Source: a virus
Virus genome (UHGV): UHGV-0378151
Direction: 5' to 3' (one strand)
Length of the DNA stretch: 6,071 bases
Shown: piece after piece, positions 1 through 6,027 of the stretch
Layout of the letters: each line of letters begins with the position of its first letter
Position numbering within the stretch: position 1 is the first letter of the stretch
The notes under the pieces: model-generated
The model's database searches: none
Told to the model about the DNA's origin: nothing
The model's input: only the letters and a program-made list of their open reading frames with translations
Program-made: the position numbers and the translations under genes

Positions 1-117
1 CCTTTTCAGGGTCGGCAAAATTAGCCAGCAAGCGACGGATAATTACGGGGATTTCAGCCGCGACCTTCTCCGGCAAATCCTTGTCTTTTTCGTCCTCCCT
101 TACAATGTTGTCGAACC
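1..117. repeat. Left copy of 117-bp inverted repeat (window-truncated, may extend further left)
   Basis: Bases 1-117 equal the reverse complement of 741-857 at 115 of 117 positions (mismatches at 62 vs 796 and 111 vs 747). Both copies encode the same peptide NIVREDEKDKDLPEKVAAEIPVIIRRLLANFADPEK on opposite strands. Confidence 0.9.
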
Positions 118-739
118 GGAAAATCACCCGACGGCGTGACACACCTCCGGCCCGCTCGGTGAATATCATCGGGTTATTGTTGGTAGCCAGCACCACCGCC
201 CTGATTACCGCCGTGAAACGCTTTTCATATTTCGGGTTAATTTCCACGGGGTCGCCGCCTGTGATTTTCTTGATGCCCGTTCCTTCGCCTGTATATTTCG
301 GCTGGTCAGCCAGGACGATAAGACGACTCCCGACAACCTGAGCACGCCCACCAGCATCATCAAGCGAAGTCATTTCAGCGCTTACCGTGTTCTGTTTCCC
401 TGCCAGAAGGCTGGCTATGTGTGTGAATGTACTTTTACCGCTACCGCCCTCTCCGGTGGCCTCAATAAACATCTGCCAGTCGTACCGGTTCGCCATAATC
501 ATGTACAGCGCGGCACATATACGCATCATCTTGCGCGAGTCTTTTCCGGCTGCGTGCTCAAGCCATTTATGAAAGTTTGGCGCGTTATCGCGGATGTTCT
601 CCCCTGGTGCTGGTGGCGTGTACTCAATGCCGTTGTTCGTGGTGATCCAGTTCTCCGGCGTGTGCGGGGAAAATTCCCCCGTTTTCAGGTCAAGCGCACC
701 ATTGGCGAACGGCAGCAAATCGCCGGACGGCTCGCCCAT
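1..739 (-). CDS. P4-family phage/plasmid primase-helicase, central ATPase fragment (partial; 3' end runs off window start; N-terminal primase domain absent)
   Basis: Own minus-strand translation is open from the stop at 866-868 down to position 1. It reads ...LPFANGALDLKTGEF...IEATGEGGSGKSTFTHI (Walker A P-loop, about 428-454)...SRLIVLADQ (Walker B-like, about 305-322)...VIFRFDNIVREDEKDKDLPEKVAAEIPVIIRRLLANFADPEK. First Met is at 737-739. Not in the ORF track because it is window-truncated. Confidence 0.65.
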   Translation of the reverse strand, partial: MGEPSGDLLPFANGALDLKTGEFSPHTPENWITTNNGIEYTPPAPGENIRDNAPNFHKWLEHAAGKDSRKMMRICAALYMIMANRYDWQMFIEATGEGGSGKSTFTHIASLLAGKQNTVSAEMTSLDDAGGRAQVVGSRLIVLADQPKYTGEGTGIKKITGGDPVEINPKYEKRFTAVIRAVVLATNNNPMIFTERAGGVSRRRVIFRFDNIVREDEKDKDLPEKVAAEIPVIIRRLLANFADPEK

Positions 740-1210
740 TGGTTCGGCAACATTGTAAGGGAGGACGAAAAAGACAAGGATTTGCCGGAGAAGGTTGCGG
801 CTGAAATCCCCGTAATTATCCGTCGCTTGCTGGCTAATTTTGCCGACCCTGAAAAGGCACGGGCTTTATTACTGGAACAGCGCGACGGTGATGAAGCACT
901 GGCGATAAAGCAACAGACGGATCCGGTTATTGAGTTTTGCCAGTTCCTGAATTTTCTGGAGGAAGCGCGCGGCCTGATGATGGGTGGCGGTGGCGATTCC
1001 GTGAAGTACACGACCAGAAACAGCCTTTACCGCGTCTATCTGGCGTTTATGGCATACGCAGGCAGGAGCAAACCGCTAAACGTGGCTGAGTTCAGCAAGG
1101 CCATGAAGCCAGCGGCAAAAGTTTACGGACATGAATATATTACGCGGAGAGTTAAGGGAGTAACGCAGACCAACGCAATTACAACTGATGATTGTGACGC
1201 GTTTTTATAA
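419..1210 (+). CDS. Primase C-terminal domain ORF; only 741-1210 is primase-like, the first ~108 codons are antisense to the minus-strand ATPase core (likely chimeric or disrupted gene)
   Basis: ORF track 419-1210. From 741 it reads ...NIVREDEKDKDLPEKVAAEIPVIIRRLLANFADPEKARALLLEQRDGDE...DCDAFL, continuing exactly where the minus-strand fragment stops being homologous. No in-frame ATG or GTG exists between 741 and about 975. Iterons follow immediately downstream, as expected after a P4-type primase gene. Confidence 0.55.
   Translation: MCECTFTATALSGGLNKHLPVVPVRHNHVQRGTYTHHLARVFSGCVLKPFMKVWRVIADVLPWCWWRVLNAVVRGDPVLRRVRGKFPRFQVKRTIGERQQIAGRLAHWFGNIVREDEKDKDLPEKVAAEIPVIIRRLLANFADPEKARALLLEQRDGDEALAIKQQTDPVIEFCQFLNFLEEARGLMMGGGGDSVKYTTRNSLYRVYLAFMAYAGRSKPLNVAEFSKAMKPAAKVYGHEYITRRVKGVTQTNAITTDDCDAFL
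741..857. repeat. Right copy of 117-bp inverted repeat
   Basis: Reverse complement matches 1-117 with 2 mismatches; one is synonymous (GTT/GTC Val), one changes Gly to Asp. Confidence 0.9.
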
Positions 1211-1224
1211 TTTTTTGTAAAAGT

Positions 1225-1448
1225 CCTCTACCCCATCCACCTGAATGAAATAAACGCATATTATTCAACATGATAAGTGGGTAGAGGGCTAGGTAGAAGG
1301 CTAATAAAACCTCTCTACCTCTTCTACCATGATTAAGATCGTTTGTGAGGGGCGGGTAGAGGATGGGTAGAGGGCCACGAAAGCCCTCTACCCATCTGAA
1401 AGCCGCGCCATTACTGACATGAAAGATGATTAGGTAGAGAGGTAGAGG
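1225..1448. repeat. Iteron array, putative origin of replication
   Basis: About 10 copies of GGTAGAGG or near variants in both orientations: direct at 1280, 1292, 1355, 1366, 1433, 1441; inverted CCTCTACC at 1225, 1312, 1321, 1385. Includes an inverted pair GGGTAGAGGGC / GCCCTCTACCC at 1365-1393. Non-coding, directly after the primase stop at 1210. Confidence 0.7.
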
Positions 1449-1496
1449 AGGTGCACCACAACCTAAAACTTTTTAAACACGAGAGTAAAAATAAAA

Positions 1497-1775
1497 ATGC
1501 ACACATCAGGAAGATTTAACAAATCACTCAAAAAACGCAAAGACAGAACAGCACCAAGATATAAAGCGCTGGAGATGACAGAGCACGCCTTAAAGGTGGC
1601 TATAAAGGTGATAGACATCACAGCGGGAGAAGGATACTCGAAAGCACATCCCGAACTAATAAGCGCATTCATGACCACGGCGGCGGCAAACTTTGCCACG
1701 CTGACAGAGCGGGAGATTGCAGAAGCGGAACAGGTAACAACCATCAACGTTAAAACCGGAGAGCAGACAGCATGA
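1497..1775 (+). CDS. Hypothetical 92-aa protein, translationally coupled to downstream SSB
   Basis: ORF track. Its TGA stop (1773-1775) overlaps the ATG (1772-1774) of the next gene as ATGA. No family recognised. Confidence 0.5.
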   Translation: MHTSGRFNKSLKKRKDRTAPRYKALEMTEHALKVAIKVIDITAGEGYSKAHPELISAFMTTAAANFATLTEREIAEAEQVTTINVKTGEQTA

Positions 1776-2182
1776 CAGCACAGATAGCGGCTTACGGGCG
1801 GCTGGTGGACGACCCGCAGGTAAAACAGACCAGCAAGGGCACACCAATGACGCTGGCACGTATGGCGGTATCGTTGCCATGTAGTCAGGCGCAGGATGGG
1901 CAGGCTACGTTATGGCTATCGGTGATGGCATTTGGTAAGCAGGCCGACTTCCTGGCTAAACATCAAAAAGGCGACGTTGCCAGCGTATCCGGCACGATGC
2001 AGGTCAGCCAGTGGACCGGACAGAACGGGGAAACGCGGCAGGGTTATCAGGTTATTGCAGACAGCGTAATCAGTGCCCGTGCGGCACGTCCTGGCGGGAA
2101 CAGACGCAAAACCACAGGCACACAGGGTAATCAGCCACCAGCGGGAGGCGATGACCCTTACGGTGATGATATTCCGTTCTGA
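1772..2182 (+). CDS. Short single-stranded DNA-binding protein (SSB family)
   Basis: 136 aa. N-terminal OB-fold pattern resembling E. coli SSB (YGRLVDDPQVK...WLSVMAFGKQADFLAKHQKGDVASVSGTMQVSQWTGQNGETR), a Gly/Pro/Gln-rich linker, and the characteristic acidic C-terminal tip DDIPF. Confidence 0.8.
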   Translation: MTAQIAAYGRLVDDPQVKQTSKGTPMTLARMAVSLPCSQAQDGQATLWLSVMAFGKQADFLAKHQKGDVASVSGTMQVSQWTGQNGETRQGYQVIADSVISARAARPGGNRRKTTGTQGNQPPAGGDDPYGDDIPF

Positions 2183-2192
2183 GGGGGTGAGG

Positions 2193-2465
2193 ATGGTACA
2201 TGACCGCATAGCGGAGGAACTCGAGGCAAAAGGCTTTTACCGGAGGGCGGCGGCACGATGGGGTGAAGTCATGCAGCTGGTGGAGACAGACAAGGAACGG
2301 CATCAGGTTACGATGCGACGGCTGGAATGTTCCAGGAAGGCACAGAGGCCACCGGAGCCGCCGGATAACTTCGGAGACCTGAGAAAGGCAGTCGATCGCA
2401 CTTATGCTGAAATGGGTATAGATGGTGTAAGCGATGAAATATGGCGTAATTACCCAGGCAGCTAA
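2193..2465 (+). CDS. PerC-family-like small transcriptional regulator
   Basis: MVHDRIAEELEAKGFYRRAAARWGEVM... resembles the conserved N-terminal motif of PerC/Pch-type regulators as I remember it. Start taken at ATG 2193, preceded by GAGGGGG (2181-2187). The track start at 2073 would overlap the SSB 3' end in another frame. Confidence 0.55.
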   Translation: MVHDRIAEELEAKGFYRRAAARWGEVMQLVETDKERHQVTMRRLECSRKAQRPPEPPDNFGDLRKAVDRTYAEMGIDGVSDEIWRNYPGS

Positions 2466-2471
2466 TCAACA

Positions 2472-2493
2472 GCCGGAGTAATCCGGCTTTTTT
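2472..2493 (+). terminator. Rho-independent terminator
   Basis: GCCGGA-GTAA-TCCGGC hairpin followed by a run of 6 T, 7 nt after the stop at 2463-2465. Confidence 0.7.
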
Positions 2494-2505
2494 GTACCCA
2501 AAAAA

Positions 2506-2542
2506 AGCCCGATAAGTACAGGAGGCATCTTATCGGGCTTTT
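2506..2542. terminator. Second hairpin terminator, possibly bidirectional
   Basis: Perfect 11-bp stem AGCCCGATAAG (2506-2516) / CTTATCGGGCT (2529-2539) with a 12-nt loop, an A7 run upstream and T-run downstream. Confidence 0.55.
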
Positions 2543-2621
2543 GCATATGAGGTTTTTTTTGGCGCACTGACACACATGATCGGGATCATCATTTCATAAT
2601 TTGCAACACAACTCAACATCA

Positions 2622-2670
2622 TTGCATAAAATGCAATCATGATTATAATCAGATCTGGATGAACATCCAG
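2622..2670 (+). promoter_or_regulatory. Putative sigma70-type promoter with overlapping palindromic operator-like sites, upstream of the capsid operon
   Basis: TTGCAT (2622-2627), 16-bp spacer, TATAAT (2644-2649). Palindromes: TTGCAT-AAA-ATGCAA (2622-2636), perfect 12-bp TGATTATAATCA (2640-2651) over the -10, and CTGGATG-AA-CATCCAG (2655-2670) near the predicted start. SD AAGAGGA at 2689-2695 before ATG 2706. Confidence 0.45.
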
Positions 2671-2705
2671 TTATGATTTTTTAAGTCAAAGAGGAATTTC
2701 TTACT

Positions 2706-2912
2706 ATGGCTGAAGAGAAAAAAGGCGGTGTTTCGGTGTACATAAGCCCCGACATCGTGAAGGCGCTCAAGGAACGCCACCAGCAGAACGTAAAAGCAGG
2801 CATTGCGGCAGGACTTGATCCGCTGGCGATGGTTGAGCCGTCAACAGGCTGGCAGGTACGCGCCTATTTACGCGCGGCGCTGGGTATGAATCAGGTTCAC
2901 GGGGGTGAATAA
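2706..2912 (+). CDS. Hypothetical 68-aa protein, first gene of capsid operon (possible ribbon-helix-helix fold)
   Basis: ORF track. Its TAA stop overlaps the capsid gene ATG as TAATG at 2910-2914. The segment VSVYISPDIVKALKERHQQ has a strand-then-helix pattern, but this is only a guess. Confidence 0.5.
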   Translation: MAEEKKGGVSVYISPDIVKALKERHQQNVKAGIAAGLDPLAMVEPSTGWQVRAYLRAALGMNQVHGGE

Positions 2913-3967
2913 TGACAGTAAAAGCAATATCACTTAACACTAACCAGCTTTTTGCGTACCTGAATCGCGAGGATATTGCGGAATTTAAATTCAGTCCGCT
3001 GTTTACCGCGCTGTTTTTCCCGAACGTGGCGACATTCAACACACAGGACATCATGTTAGATAACCTGGATATTGAAGAAGTCACTATGTCGGCGTTTTGT
3101 TCGCCTATGGTGGGTAGCCAGGTTCAGCGCGATAAAGGGTACGAAACAAGCATTATTCGCCCTGGCTACATGAAGCCAAAACACGAAATCGATCCATTAA
3201 AAACAATAATGCGCATGGCTGGAGAAGATCCAGCACAGCTTAACGACCCTACCTACCGCCGTATGCGCCTGATTACTGGCAACATGCGCCGCCAGATAAA
3301 CGCCATTAAAGCGCGCGTGGAATGGCTGGCGGTAAATGCGGTAACGACCGGAAAAAACATCATTGAGGGCGAAGGCATAGAGCGCTATGAAATCGACTGG
3401 AAGATACCGGAAAAAAACATCATAGAGCAGGCCGACGGTAAAAAATGGTCAGAGCAGGACAAAGACATACACGACCCAATCTATGACATTGAGCTATACG
3501 CAGATCAGGCAGGTTGCCCCGCAAACGTCATGATTATGGGCGTTGATGTATGGCGCATGTTACGCAGCTTTAAAAAATTCCGTGAACTGTACGATCTCTC
3601 CCGTGGTTCAGAATCCGCCGCAGAGCTGGCATGTAAAAACCTGGGAGAAGTGGTGAGCTTTAAAGGCTATCTTGGTGATCTGGCCCTTATCGTCTATTCC
3701 GGCAAATACACTGACAGCGACGGCACAGAAAAATATTTCCTTGAGCCTGATTTGCTGGTCCTGGGCAACACCAACAATAAAGGGCTGGTGGCCTATGGTG
3801 CGATTATGGAACAGGAAGCGGTAAGAACGGGCGCAACGCAAAACATGTTTTACCCGAAAAACTGGATTGAAGACGGCGATCCGGCGATTGAGTACGTGCA
3901 GACACACAGCGCACCGCAGCCTGTTCCGGCAGATATTCGCAAATTTGTTACCGTCAAAATTGGTTAA
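2912..3967 (+). CDS. Major capsid protein, lambda gpE family
   Basis: 351 aa, colinear with lambda gpE as I recall it: FKFSPLF..LFF, RPGYMKPKHEIDP, EDPAQLNDPTYRRMRLI, WRMLRSFK, SFKGYLGDLALIVYSGKY, LVLGNT, YPKNWIEDGDPA, and a SAP...KI C-terminus. Similar length to gpE (341 aa). Confidence 0.9.
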   Translation: MTVKAISLNTNQLFAYLNREDIAEFKFSPLFTALFFPNVATFNTQDIMLDNLDIEEVTMSAFCSPMVGSQVQRDKGYETSIIRPGYMKPKHEIDPLKTIMRMAGEDPAQLNDPTYRRMRLITGNMRRQINAIKARVEWLAVNAVTTGKNIIEGEGIERYEIDWKIPEKNIIEQADGKKWSEQDKDIHDPIYDIELYADQAGCPANVMIMGVDVWRMLRSFKKFRELYDLSRGSESAAELACKNLGEVVSFKGYLGDLALIVYSGKYTDSDGTEKYFLEPDLLVLGNTNNKGLVAYGAIMEQEAVRTGATQNMFYPKNWIEDGDPAIEYVQTHSAPQPVPADIRKFVTVKIG

Positions 3968-3978
3968 CGGTGGATTCT

Positions 3979-4314
3979 ATGAACACTCCATACATTGAGT
4001 TATTTGCAGGCAGTCAGCAGGTATCAACGACGCTGGTACATTTTGCCGCTGATGCTGGCGTTATTCAGGAATTTACCCCGCTGATGCTGGCGGACAATGG
4101 CGAGTTTAAGCCGTGGGATGGTCAGGAATCTGGCAAGGCTGTTTATCTGACCTCGTACCCCGTTGACACGTCGACGCAGAAATCAGCACAGTGCTATAAG
4201 ACGGGGATATTCAATATCGCCGCCGTTAACTGGCCTGAGAGCGTCGACACCGATGCGAAAAAATGCGCCGCCTTTGCGGGTTCTGGCGTATCCGTTCAGC
4301 CGCTGGCCCGATAA
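3979..4314 (+). CDS. Head decoration protein, lambda gpD family
   Basis: TPLMLADNGEFKPWDGQESGKAVYL...CYKTGIFNIAAVNWPESVDTDAKKCAAFAGSGVSV matches lambda gpD [27 protein letters not shown]...[35 protein letters not shown]. ATG 3979 preferred; the in-frame GTG at 3970 used by the track is an alternative. Confidence 0.85.
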   Translation: MNTPYIELFAGSQQVSTTLVHFAADAGVIQEFTPLMLADNGEFKPWDGQESGKAVYLTSYPVDTSTQKSAQCYKTGIFNIAAVNWPESVDTDAKKCAAFAGSGVSVQPLAR

Positions 4315-4326
4315 GCAGGGGGAACG

Positions 4327-4740
4327 ATGGCAACGAATGAAAGCATCATGGCGCTACCGCTGGCGAGTAAATTTAAAGCCGAAGCGCGGGCAATGGCTGA
4401 CAGAGGGTTATCAACCTACGAGGCCGTATATCAACTCAACAAACTGGAAGAACAGGACAAGCCGCGCGCTGATGCGATTATGGCGCTTCATGAACATAAC
4501 GACTATCAGCCGCTGTTACGTGCAATGGCAAACGTGCCATGTATTAGCGTCGATAATGCTCGTGAAATCCTGAACATGACCATAGAGCAGGAGCGCCCAA
4601 AGGTTGCACCAGAGCTTACCGCAGCCTTTGAAAACTTTATGGACATGCACAGCCCGCAAGCCGTATCAGCTGGCATGGCATACGATGGCAGAAACCAGGG
4701 CGATGACGGCGACATCGATCACATACTGAAAACCATCTGA
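4327..4740 (+). CDS. Hypothetical 137-aa acidic protein, positioned where lambda has FI after the capsid gene
   Basis: ORF track. SD AGGGGGA at 4316-4322. No recognisable similarity to lambda FI or any other family; the functional guess is positional only. Confidence 0.5.
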   Translation: MATNESIMALPLASKFKAEARAMADRGLSTYEAVYQLNKLEEQDKPRADAIMALHEHNDYQPLLRAMANVPCISVDNAREILNMTIEQERPKVAPELTAAFENFMDMHSPQAVSAGMAYDGRNQGDDGDIDHILKTI

Positions 4741-4745
4741 GACAA

Positions 4746-4770
4746 GGCCGGAGAAATCCGGCTTTTTTTT
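4746..4770 (+). terminator. Rho-independent terminator
   Basis: GGCCGGA-GAAA-TCCGGC hairpin followed by T8, directly after the stop at 4738-4740. Near-identical to the hairpin at 2472-2493. Confidence 0.75.
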
Positions 4771-4947
4771 ACGGGTCCTTTCCGGCATATGGACCCGTTA
4801 CGGGGCGGCGACCTCGCGGTTTTTCGCTATTTATGAGCCTTTTCAGGGGGGTGGTGGTGGTTTTGTTGTTTGATCTATCTTTATGAATGAAAAGGGAAAG
4901 ATGCAAGCAATACACCAACCTGAAGCAGTAATTAAGTTGGTGTATTA
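4771..4947 (+). other. cos site 1 (plus orientation): lambda-type cosQ and cosN with a divergent cosB
   Basis: ACGGGTCCTTTCCGG...TTACG / GGGCGGCGACCT / CGCGG-TTTTTCGCTATTTATGA is almost base-for-base the lambda right-end/left-end junction as I recall it. The 12-nt cohesive-end sequence GGGCGGCGACCT is at 4803-4814. Downstream of about 4835 it no longer resembles lambda cosB. A perfect 9-bp inverted repeat TACACCAAC (4911-4919) / GTTGGTGTA (4936-4944) ends 3 nt before the ATG. Confidence 0.8.
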
Positions 4948-5490
4948 ATGAAATCTCATCTGATGAACAAAAAAAACATGGCGAAAAGCTGCCGTGTAAG
5001 TGCGACAGCGTTCGACAAGTGGGGAGTAACTCCCGTTGAGCGTAAAGGCCGTGAGGCGTTTTATGATGTTGCCAGCGTGATAGAAAATAGGGTTAACAAT
5101 GCAATTAGCCAGCTTATAAACGACAAAGGCGAGATTGACGATGATGAACTTTTACGAGTCAGGATCAGATTACTGACAGCACAGGCAGAGGCGCAGGAAC
5201 TTAAAAACGATCGCGATCGCGGTGACGTGATTGATACTGAGTTTTGCCTGTACGCGCTTTCAAAGCTGGCGAGTCAGATTTCATCAATCATGGACAGCCT
5301 CCCGCTTACTATGCAAAGGAGCTTCCCACAGATTACCCCCGCCATGCTGGATAGGCTTAAAAGGGAAGTGGTTAAAGCCTGTAATGCCAGTGCCAGAGTT
5401 GCCGACAACCTCCCACAGATACTGGCTGATTACTTGAAAGAAACAACCGGAAACGTACCGGAAAAGTTGCTACAGAAGAAAGGCGAGTAA
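4948..5490 (+). CDS. Terminase small subunit, lambda Nu1 family
   Basis: Colinear with lambda Nu1: N-terminal region (KSCRVSATAFDKWGV vs ADIFGASIRTIQNWQEQGM) and strongly in the C-terminal half (LTAQAEAQELKNDRDRGDVIDTEFCLYALSKLASQISSIMDSLPLTMQRSFP vs LTRAQADAQELKNARDSAEVVETAFCTFVLSRIAGEIASILDGLPLSVQRRFP). Alternative start at ATG 4963. Confidence 0.9.
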   Translation: MKSHLMNKKNMAKSCRVSATAFDKWGVTPVERKGREAFYDVASVIENRVNNAISQLINDKGEIDDDELLRVRIRLLTAQAEAQELKNDRDRGDVIDTEFCLYALSKLASQISSIMDSLPLTMQRSFPQITPAMLDRLKREVVKACNASARVADNLPQILADYLKETTGNVPEKLLQKKGE

Positions 5491-5712
5491 CAGACGCGCA
5501 ATTATTGAACAAAACTGAGAAACGACATGAAAGCGTCATAAATCGCCATTTTAGATGATTACCGTGTCGTTTCTTTTTATTGTGTATCTATTTAAAAACA
5601 AATAGTTATGTTCGAGAAGTACCGACATGCTTTTTCCAGAAAAATTTTCATAAACAGATAAAAACCGCGAGGTCGCCGCCCCGTAACGGGCCATAATTCC
5701 AGGAAGGACCCG
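5491..5712 (-). other. cos site 2 (minus orientation): lambda-type cosQ-cosN plus lambda-like cosB
   Basis: Reverse complement of 5661-5712 reads CGGGTCCTTCCTGG...CCCGTTACGGGGCGGCGACCTCGCGGTTTT, with a perfect match of about 30 bp to cos1 (4794-4823). Continuing on the minus strand, TTTATGAAAATTTTC, CATAACT and the inverted GAAACGACA (5519-5527) / TGTCGTTTC (5565-5573) motifs track lambda cosB closely. Complement of the cohesive-end 12-mer is at 5670-5681. Confidence 0.8.
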
Positions 5713-5745
5713 ACGACACCAGACTATCAGAACGATGGGGGCACA

Positions 5746-6027
5746 ATGACAGAAGCCGAAATACTGGGATTAATCCGCCGCGTTGCCGGAATCAGCCAGC
5801 AGGTTGACGAACAGGCCACGCAGCCGGACAGCGTGATCGCCGAAAATTACGCGCGTGTTGTTGCTGATGTGATGCGCCGTGATGGTATTGAGCTTAACGG
5901 CGTGGATATGCGCGACATACGGATCAGATTCCTTGAGTTGCTGGCCTACCGTCGCCGCGTGGAGATGTATCGGGAGAAGGAGAAAATAACGTACCACTGG
6001 AAGAAGCCGGAGCGGTTGCGGCGGTAA
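5746..6027 (+). CDS. Hypothetical 93-aa protein
   Basis: ORF track. Basic, helical-looking composition; GGGGG 4 nt upstream of the ATG. Preferred over the overlapping minus-strand ORF 5770-5997 because it is longer and follows the operon strand. No family recognised; not similar to the lambda gpA N-terminus. Confidence 0.45.
   Translation: MTEAEILGLIRRVAGISQQVDEQATQPDSVIAENYARVVADVMRRDGIELNGVDMRDIRIRFLELLAYRRRVEMYREKEKITYHWKKPERLRR

Follow-up and report, generated by a model that had tools for sequence, protein, structure and literature searches.

Why does the primase gene of a common Escherichia coli satellite lie here in two pieces on opposite strands? The question is raised by the left end of the stretch of DNA that we analysed (the window, 6,071 bases), where the helicase core of the primase is encoded on the minus strand, the C-terminal domain is encoded on the plus strand, and the two copies of an inverted repeat flank the core. 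In a first-pass annotation, three explanations were put forward: the core could flip as a switch that governs replication competence, the locus could be the scar of a recombination event, or part of the gene could have been duplicated in inverted orientation, with the other arm to the left of the window. In our judgement, it is very probable that the locus contains a one-off, non-programmed strand-switch junction inside an ordinary primase gene of a phage-inducible chromosomal island (PICI). The parts of the locus are as follows, with nucleotides and residues numbered as in the intact 582-aa gene of related islands; we call gene nt 1280-1396 R.

1-117, minus strand: left arm of the repeat, antisense of primase gene nt 1280-1396 (residues 427-465).
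118-740, minus strand: primase-helicase core, gene nt 657-1279 (residues 220-426), with the Walker A motif GEGGSGKS.
741-750, no strand assigned: junction microhomology, which reads GGTTCGGCAA and is the exact reverse complement of gene nt 647-656, TTGCCGAACC.
751-857, plus strand: remainder of the right arm, gene nt 1290-1396 in sense orientation, running on into the C-terminal domain.
858-1210, plus strand: primase C-terminal domain, residues 466-582 and the stop codon (Pfam Pox_D5, 22.2 bits).
1222-1448, no strand assigned: putative iteron-type replication origin, with at least nine copies of (G/A)GGTAGAGG in both orientations, directly after the primase stop.

The 117-bp inverted repeat proposed in the first-pass annotation was borne out. 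Positions 1-117 and 741-857 are complementary at 115 of 117 positions (98%) in the 6,071-base window, and, as was also claimed, the two arms encode the same 36-residue peptide (NIVREDEK...ADPEK). This repeat stands far above chance, because the next-best inverted repeat in the window is only 72 nt long at 82%; all remaining ones are 27 nt or shorter. The two mismatches pair position 62 with 796 and position 111 with 747, and the outer 61 bases of the arms are perfect as far as the mismatch at 62. The repeat stops exactly at base 1. Its full length may therefore exceed what the window shows, and the 117 bp probably represent only a portion of an inverted duplication that continues leftward.

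The division of the gene between the strands was likewise as first described. On the minus strand of 1-739, there is an open frame of 246 aa that contains the Walker A motif. It scores 111.4 bits against the NCBIfam model TIGR01613 ('phage/plasmid primase, P4 family'; cut-off 108.7), and its Pfam matches are DUF5906 and the C-terminal third of D5_N. On the plus strand, 741-1210 corresponds to residues 427-582, i.e., the C-terminal 156 residues, of an intact 582-aa homologue. Fragments consisting of this C-terminal domain carry the NCBI label 'primase-like DNA-binding domain'. The core is thus antisense relative to the rest of the island. Like the alpha primase-helicase of phage P4, the protein has a P4-family C-terminal/helicase domain that scores above the curated TIGR01613 cut-off. 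Unlike P4 alpha, its relatives are 582-aa PICI pri-rep proteins found in a PICI context, with D5_N, DUF5906 and a weak Pox_D5 match.

We inverted 118-740 in silico. This gave an open frame of 363 aa that is identical at 361 of 363 positions to residues 220-582 of the primase of locus L002 (6551-8299), which confirms the earlier claim that a flip would yield a continuous frame from the core to the C-terminus. Alignment to an intact primase, suggested in the first-pass annotation as a check, had a divided outcome: the flip restores residues 220-582, but residues 1-219 are found nowhere in the window. The breakpoint falls at residue 220, within the Pfam D5_N domain (residues 151-280), and the minus-strand fragment begins at an internal Met within a domain. 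Read antisense, R is an open frame of 39 codons, in phase with the flipped 118-740.

The setting of the gene is that of a PICI of the EcCICFT073 type (Fillol-Salom et al. 2018, PMC6092414), and the window is part of an ordinary E. coli island of this kind. With gene identities taken from Pfam and from the source names of homologues, the order after the primase is the iteron field, a 92-aa ORF, SSB, PerC, a lambda gpE-like capsid protein, a gpD-like decoration protein, a head-tail connector, a Nu1-like small terminase (TerS) and a 93-aa ORF. This order of pri-rep, iteron ori, SSB, PerC, capsid, decoration protein, connector and TerS is shared with EcCICFT073-type PICIs. The window is unlike them in that its pri-rep core is inverted and R is duplicated, whereas other members have one colinear 582-aa gene. 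In E. coli PICIs, ori lies immediately 3' of pri-rep, and the rep-ori module is required for PICI replication (PMC6092414). Both parts of such a replication module are recognizable in the window: the gene for a D5-type P-loop helicase initiator, disrupted here, and iterons immediately 3' of it. Judging from its repeats and position, 1222-1448 is the predicted iteron-type origin of the island and the presumed target of the primase/initiator.

An integrase and att sites would lie outside the window; near-identical relatives are located between a sulfatase/DUF3413 gene and narP-ccm, with an integrase at the left end. The window also contains a sequence that resembles cosN/cosB of phage 21: on the minus strand, 5594-5687 matches the cosN-I2-R3-I1 region of that phage. 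This cos-like region was the only match when the window was compared with a phage collection.

Two further observations concern the right-hand part of the island. The 72-nt, 82% inverted repeat (4772-4843 and 5641-5712) brackets the Nu1-like terS gene (4948-5490). Loci L002, L005 and L006, which are without terS, have one cos-like copy and are missing 4837-5640, and L008 has the same layout as the window. This looks like a cos-plus-terS cassette that was inserted, in inverted orientation, beside the island's own cos. Separately, two near-identical GC hairpins, each followed by a T run (GCCGGAGnAATCCGGCTTTTTT), lie at 2472-2497, after PerC, and at 4747-4772, after the connector gene. From their form, they look like intrinsic terminators that would delimit transcription units.

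Islands of this kind are common: homologues are present in 576 of 5,426 complete E. coli genomes. None of these 576 genomes has the layout of the window, and the best coverage of 1-1210 by a single piece is 62%. In the intact relatives, the primase is one colinear 582-aa gene, and a colinear gene with a single copy of R was found in L001-L003, L005, L006, L008, L010, L014 and L015. The first-pass annotation had named homologous elements with a colinear, intact primase and no internal inverted repeat as part of what would speak against a programmed inversion, and such elements are what we found.

The closest comparison is with the intact island L008. When un-inverted in silico, the window is colinear with L008 over 5,954 bp at 99.7% and without gaps. 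There are no differences at all over 797-5836; those that exist are at 341, 347 and 368, at the junction base 747, at 796 (synonymous), and in a patch of 13 differences at 5837-5931. Segment 858-1210 is 100% identical to L005, L006 and L008, and segment 118-740 is 99.5% identical to the same three loci. The three differences from L008 within 118-740, at 341, 347 and 368, are all synonymous and at third-codon positions, and L014 and L015, which are natural alleles with a colinear gene, have this patch as well. Sequencing error can therefore be ruled out as their cause. As a separate matter, the window is mosaic relative to L008: the patch at 341-368 (three synonymous changes, common to the more distant L014 and L015) and the patch at 5837-5931 (13 changes, in the last ORF) suggest that island alleles circulating together have exchanged sequence by gene conversion.

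These comparisons bear directly on whether the locus is a programmed switch. According to this explanation, 118-740 is a discrete cassette between two 117-bp repeats, a second junction lies just to the left of base 1, and flipping by a site-specific recombinase or by RecA-dependent recombination toggles replication competence. Several features are in keeping with it. The segment is flanked by a 98% inverted repeat that is long enough for homologous recombination, the flip gives back the frame from core to C-terminus, and the antisense of R is open for 39 codons in phase with the flipped segment. However, the repeat is present in no relative, as all loci compared have a single copy of R, and a recombinase gene was found neither in the window nor beside the primase in homologous loci. 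The one recombinase that related loci do have is the island integrase, which is encoded about 3-4 kb upstream of the primase. The breakpoint at residue 220 would cut through D5_N, and the flipped product would either lack residues 1-219 or carry a 39-aa junk insertion. In addition, a conserved Asp is replaced through the G at 747, and the supposed outer boundary of the cassette coincides with the end of the window. Promoter-like sites also give no encouragement: in 1-1500, both promoter-like and terminator-like sites occur at the same level as in shuffled controls.

Site-specific invertible switches include those of the Hin, Gin and Cin invertases, the fim switch and the shufflons. The window resembles these systems in that inverted repeats bracket a DNA segment. 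It differs in that no recombinase is present and the repeats are duplicated coding sequence rather than short conserved recombination sites; moreover, relatives do not share the repeats, and the gene product is incomplete in either orientation. Of the four features that define a programmed invertible switch, three are thus absent, namely an adjacent recombinase, conserved repeats, and an effect on expression or alternative functional products. The databases contain the colinear orientation only, and without the repeat. The idea of an invertible switch on replication competence is therefore not supported, and we regard the discrete cassette as very unlikely. Equally improbable, in our view, is a related form of this idea, in which a RecA-flippable 623-bp helicase core has newly arisen, with a real junction in a living strain, a discrete 117-bp pair and a second junction to the left of base 1. 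If it were true, it would constitute a newly arisen reversible switch on satellite replication, and the satellite would alternate between a dead replicon and one whose product is a helicase truncated at its N-terminus or else a primase into which 39 aa have been inserted in frame.

The exact position of the join is more informative about its origin. It had been placed at 740|741. The split between strands is correct, but the position is not: 741-750 is still antisense gene, and the only non-natural join in the window is at 750|751. Homologous primase genes align to window positions 1-750, past 740, and the whole of 1-750 is one unbroken natural block of the gene, nt 647-1396, in antisense. To the right of 750|751, the natural gene and island follow in sense orientation. 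The '117-bp repeat' is therefore the overlap of the antisense block (1-750) with the sense block. Complete genomes confirm this placement. Positions 711-750 are matched in 453 of them, 243 at an identity of at least 99%; all of the matches end at 750, and in none of the 453 do they cross 750|751.

The bases just before the join have a counterpart at the other side of the switch. The natural R starts with GGTTCGACAA (nt 1280-1289), which matches GGTTCGGCAA at 9 of 10 positions, and gene nt 647-656 and 1280-1289 are accordingly 9/10 reverse complements of each other. The continuation of R starts at 751, directly after GGTTCGGCAA. The intact gene contains 71 inverted 10-mer pairs that match at 9 or more of 10 positions, and thus the site of the junction is a chance one, and not a dedicated one. 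The single differing base of the microhomology is G747, which is the base of the upstream microhomology copy; in an alignment of eight alleles, no other has it, and it puts Gly in place of a conserved Asp. The 111/747 mismatch between the arms hence exists because the two microhomology copies naturally differ at that position. A simple reciprocal inversion between the two 10-bp sites was also considered. It is excluded, since the sequence to the left of 108 is the reverse complement of R, and not the natural upstream sequence.

Given these features, we propose the following strand switch. The 3' end of a DNA strand would copy the primase gene in antisense, starting at some point past nt 1396 and stopping at nt 647, so that the copied end would terminate in ...GGTTCGGCAA-3'. 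This end could then re-anneal to the 9/10-complementary nt 1280-1289, which could lie within its own 5' part (snap-back) or in a different strand. From there, synthesis in the sense direction would continue across the C-terminal domain and the ori into the remainder of the island, and the product would be an inverted partial duplication. Such a switch would explain the retained G747, the duplicated R and the 623-nt loop. What we see at the join agrees with it: close, opposite-strand segments of one locus are joined, the switch points are 623 nt apart, and the join lies in 10 nt of 9/10 complementarity that carry G747, the base of the invading end. Of the explanations originally offered, a recombination scar or an inverted partial duplication with its other arm to the left of the window is therefore supported, in that 1-750 is unbroken antisense and the repeat stops at the edge.

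The differences between the arms deserve separate consideration, because they had been cited as an argument against an artefact. This argument is weak for both mismatches: the one at 747 is a by-product of the junction microhomology, and the one at 796 amounts to one substitution at a wobble position that varies naturally. The left arm shows 100% identity to the lone natural copy of R in L001, L002, L005, L006, L008 and L010. The right arm holds a private T at 796, a wobble site that has C, T or A in other alleles. Its exact sequence is in no complete E. coli genome (best match 98.3%), and a T at 796 in an L008-like background is absent from the complete E. coli genomes and from all three contig collections that were searched. 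It is important to emphasize that the 62/796 difference counts against a snap-back, as a snap-back on a single molecule predicts identical arms. For a snap-back, one arm would have to have mutated afterwards, a base would have to have been misread in sequencing, or there would have to have been two source alleles, and any of these is possible; two source alleles might come from two islands in one genome or from a mixed sample. If there were two source alleles, the junction could be a fusion of oppositely oriented island copies.

A strand switch of this kind could have happened in vitro or in a cell. Among chimeras formed during strand-displacement amplification, 85% have the inverted form, and the joined segments mostly lie less than 10 kb from each other; in 93.5% of the inverted chimeras below this distance, a complementary stretch of 2-21 nt is found at the junction (Lasken and Stockwell 2007, PMC1855051). 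The window is like these chimeras in that opposite strands of the same locus, 623 bp apart, are joined at 10 nt of complementarity, within the 2-21 nt range. It is unlike them in that its arms differ at a further base, 796, and in that the junction survived assembly. The assembler retained the junction over the natural N-terminal link, which suggests that the junction was not a rare minority of the reads. This favours either a clonal event in vivo or an early, dominant amplification chimera. More speculatively, the perfect outer 61 bases and the end at base 1 might be the output of a de Bruijn assembler with k=61 for a hairpin-shaped graph (stem, loop and k-base overlap).

In cells, template switching at short inverted repeats occurs in quasipalindromes and in the formation of head-to-head dimers of E. 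coli plasmids; it is RecA-independent and yields inverted duplications. By analogy, a strand switch at short inverted repeats may have led to the inverted duplication here. Weighing what the window itself offers, we would place an origin in vitro or in assembly, as an amplification or library fold-back chimera at a contig end, slightly above even. A sporadic rearrangement in vivo, within which we count the fusion of two oppositely oriented island copies, would stand slightly below even.

The junction was found in one sample only, based on searches of complete E. coli genomes, three contig collections and a protein collection. Specifically, a 38-mer across the junction had no match in the viral, metagenome and species-representative genome contig collections. 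Among 5.8 billion protein clusters, none spans the 263-aa junction ORF; the maximum coverage is 61%, and all matches are to the C-terminal part. Neither the junction-spanning ORF, in four start variants, nor the 93-aa ORF has an exact match in the protein collection, and the capsid protein and other window ORFs looked up in the same way are too widespread to be traced to one contig. By contrast with these, the 127-aa and 142-aa C-terminal ORFs have exact matches on other contigs, L012 (P0001) and L013 (P0002). L012 is colinear with the un-inverted gene of the window. L013 is an ENA metagenome contig (NODE_51797) with a coverage of 1.7x. It corresponds to window positions 758-1652 at 99.8%, its positions 1-126 have no match in complete E. 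coli genomes, and its own join lies 17 nt from the junction of the window. It is probably an unrelated low-coverage chimera.

These contigs are relevant to two more explanations. One is that the helicase core and the DNA-binding domain have become separate genes on opposite strands as an inherited arrangement of a sub-lineage. Stand-alone C-terminal fragments are indeed called as genes in some assemblies (P0001 and P0002), which would be expected in this case. However, the contig of P0001 is colinear, and that of P0002, which has very low coverage, runs into unrelated sequence. Moreover, no database sequence has the same layout, and the Met at which the minus-strand fragment begins is an internal one that lies within a domain. 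We therefore view an inherited arrangement as extremely unlikely. As a side observation from the search with the junction ORF, two 461-aa proteins of Enterobacter kobei (P0148 and P0149) combine Pfam Phage_integrase with Pox_D5, i.e., the primase C-terminal domain. They may represent a fusion of an integrase with a primase C-terminus, or a deletion product, in another satellite.

The other explanation is a pure mis-join, in which an assembler took a wrong path through a repeat in the graph, and no physical molecule ever had the junction. The repeat does reach the end of the sequence, draft assemblies often break inside the primase gene (there are numerous 'partial' fragments at contig ends), and the low-coverage contig L013 also has an odd join, as noted above. 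On the other hand, the sequence across the join (GGTTCGGCAACATTG...) is in no natural allele examined, and the stretch that is naturally shared is just 10 bp with one mismatch. An assembler with a k or an overlap above 10 would therefore need real reads that contain the junction. For this reason, we think a pure mis-join improbable, and continue to prefer a physical strand switch, whether in vitro or in vivo, inside an ordinary PICI primase gene.

The practical value of this result is in quality control. The window bears the marks of a fold-back: a repeat that touches the contig end, an inner border on a short chance microhomology, and colinearity with all relatives once un-inverted. Before windows of this kind are interpreted in functional terms, they should be filtered out or compared with the reads. 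Biologically, the rearrangement is of little consequence; it is not novel, and at most it marks a common satellite of which one copy is dead. If a cell does carry the junction, then one copy of a very common E. coli satellite has lost pri-rep. Since pri-rep is needed for rep-ori replication (PMC6092414), an island copy with this junction would be replication-dead.
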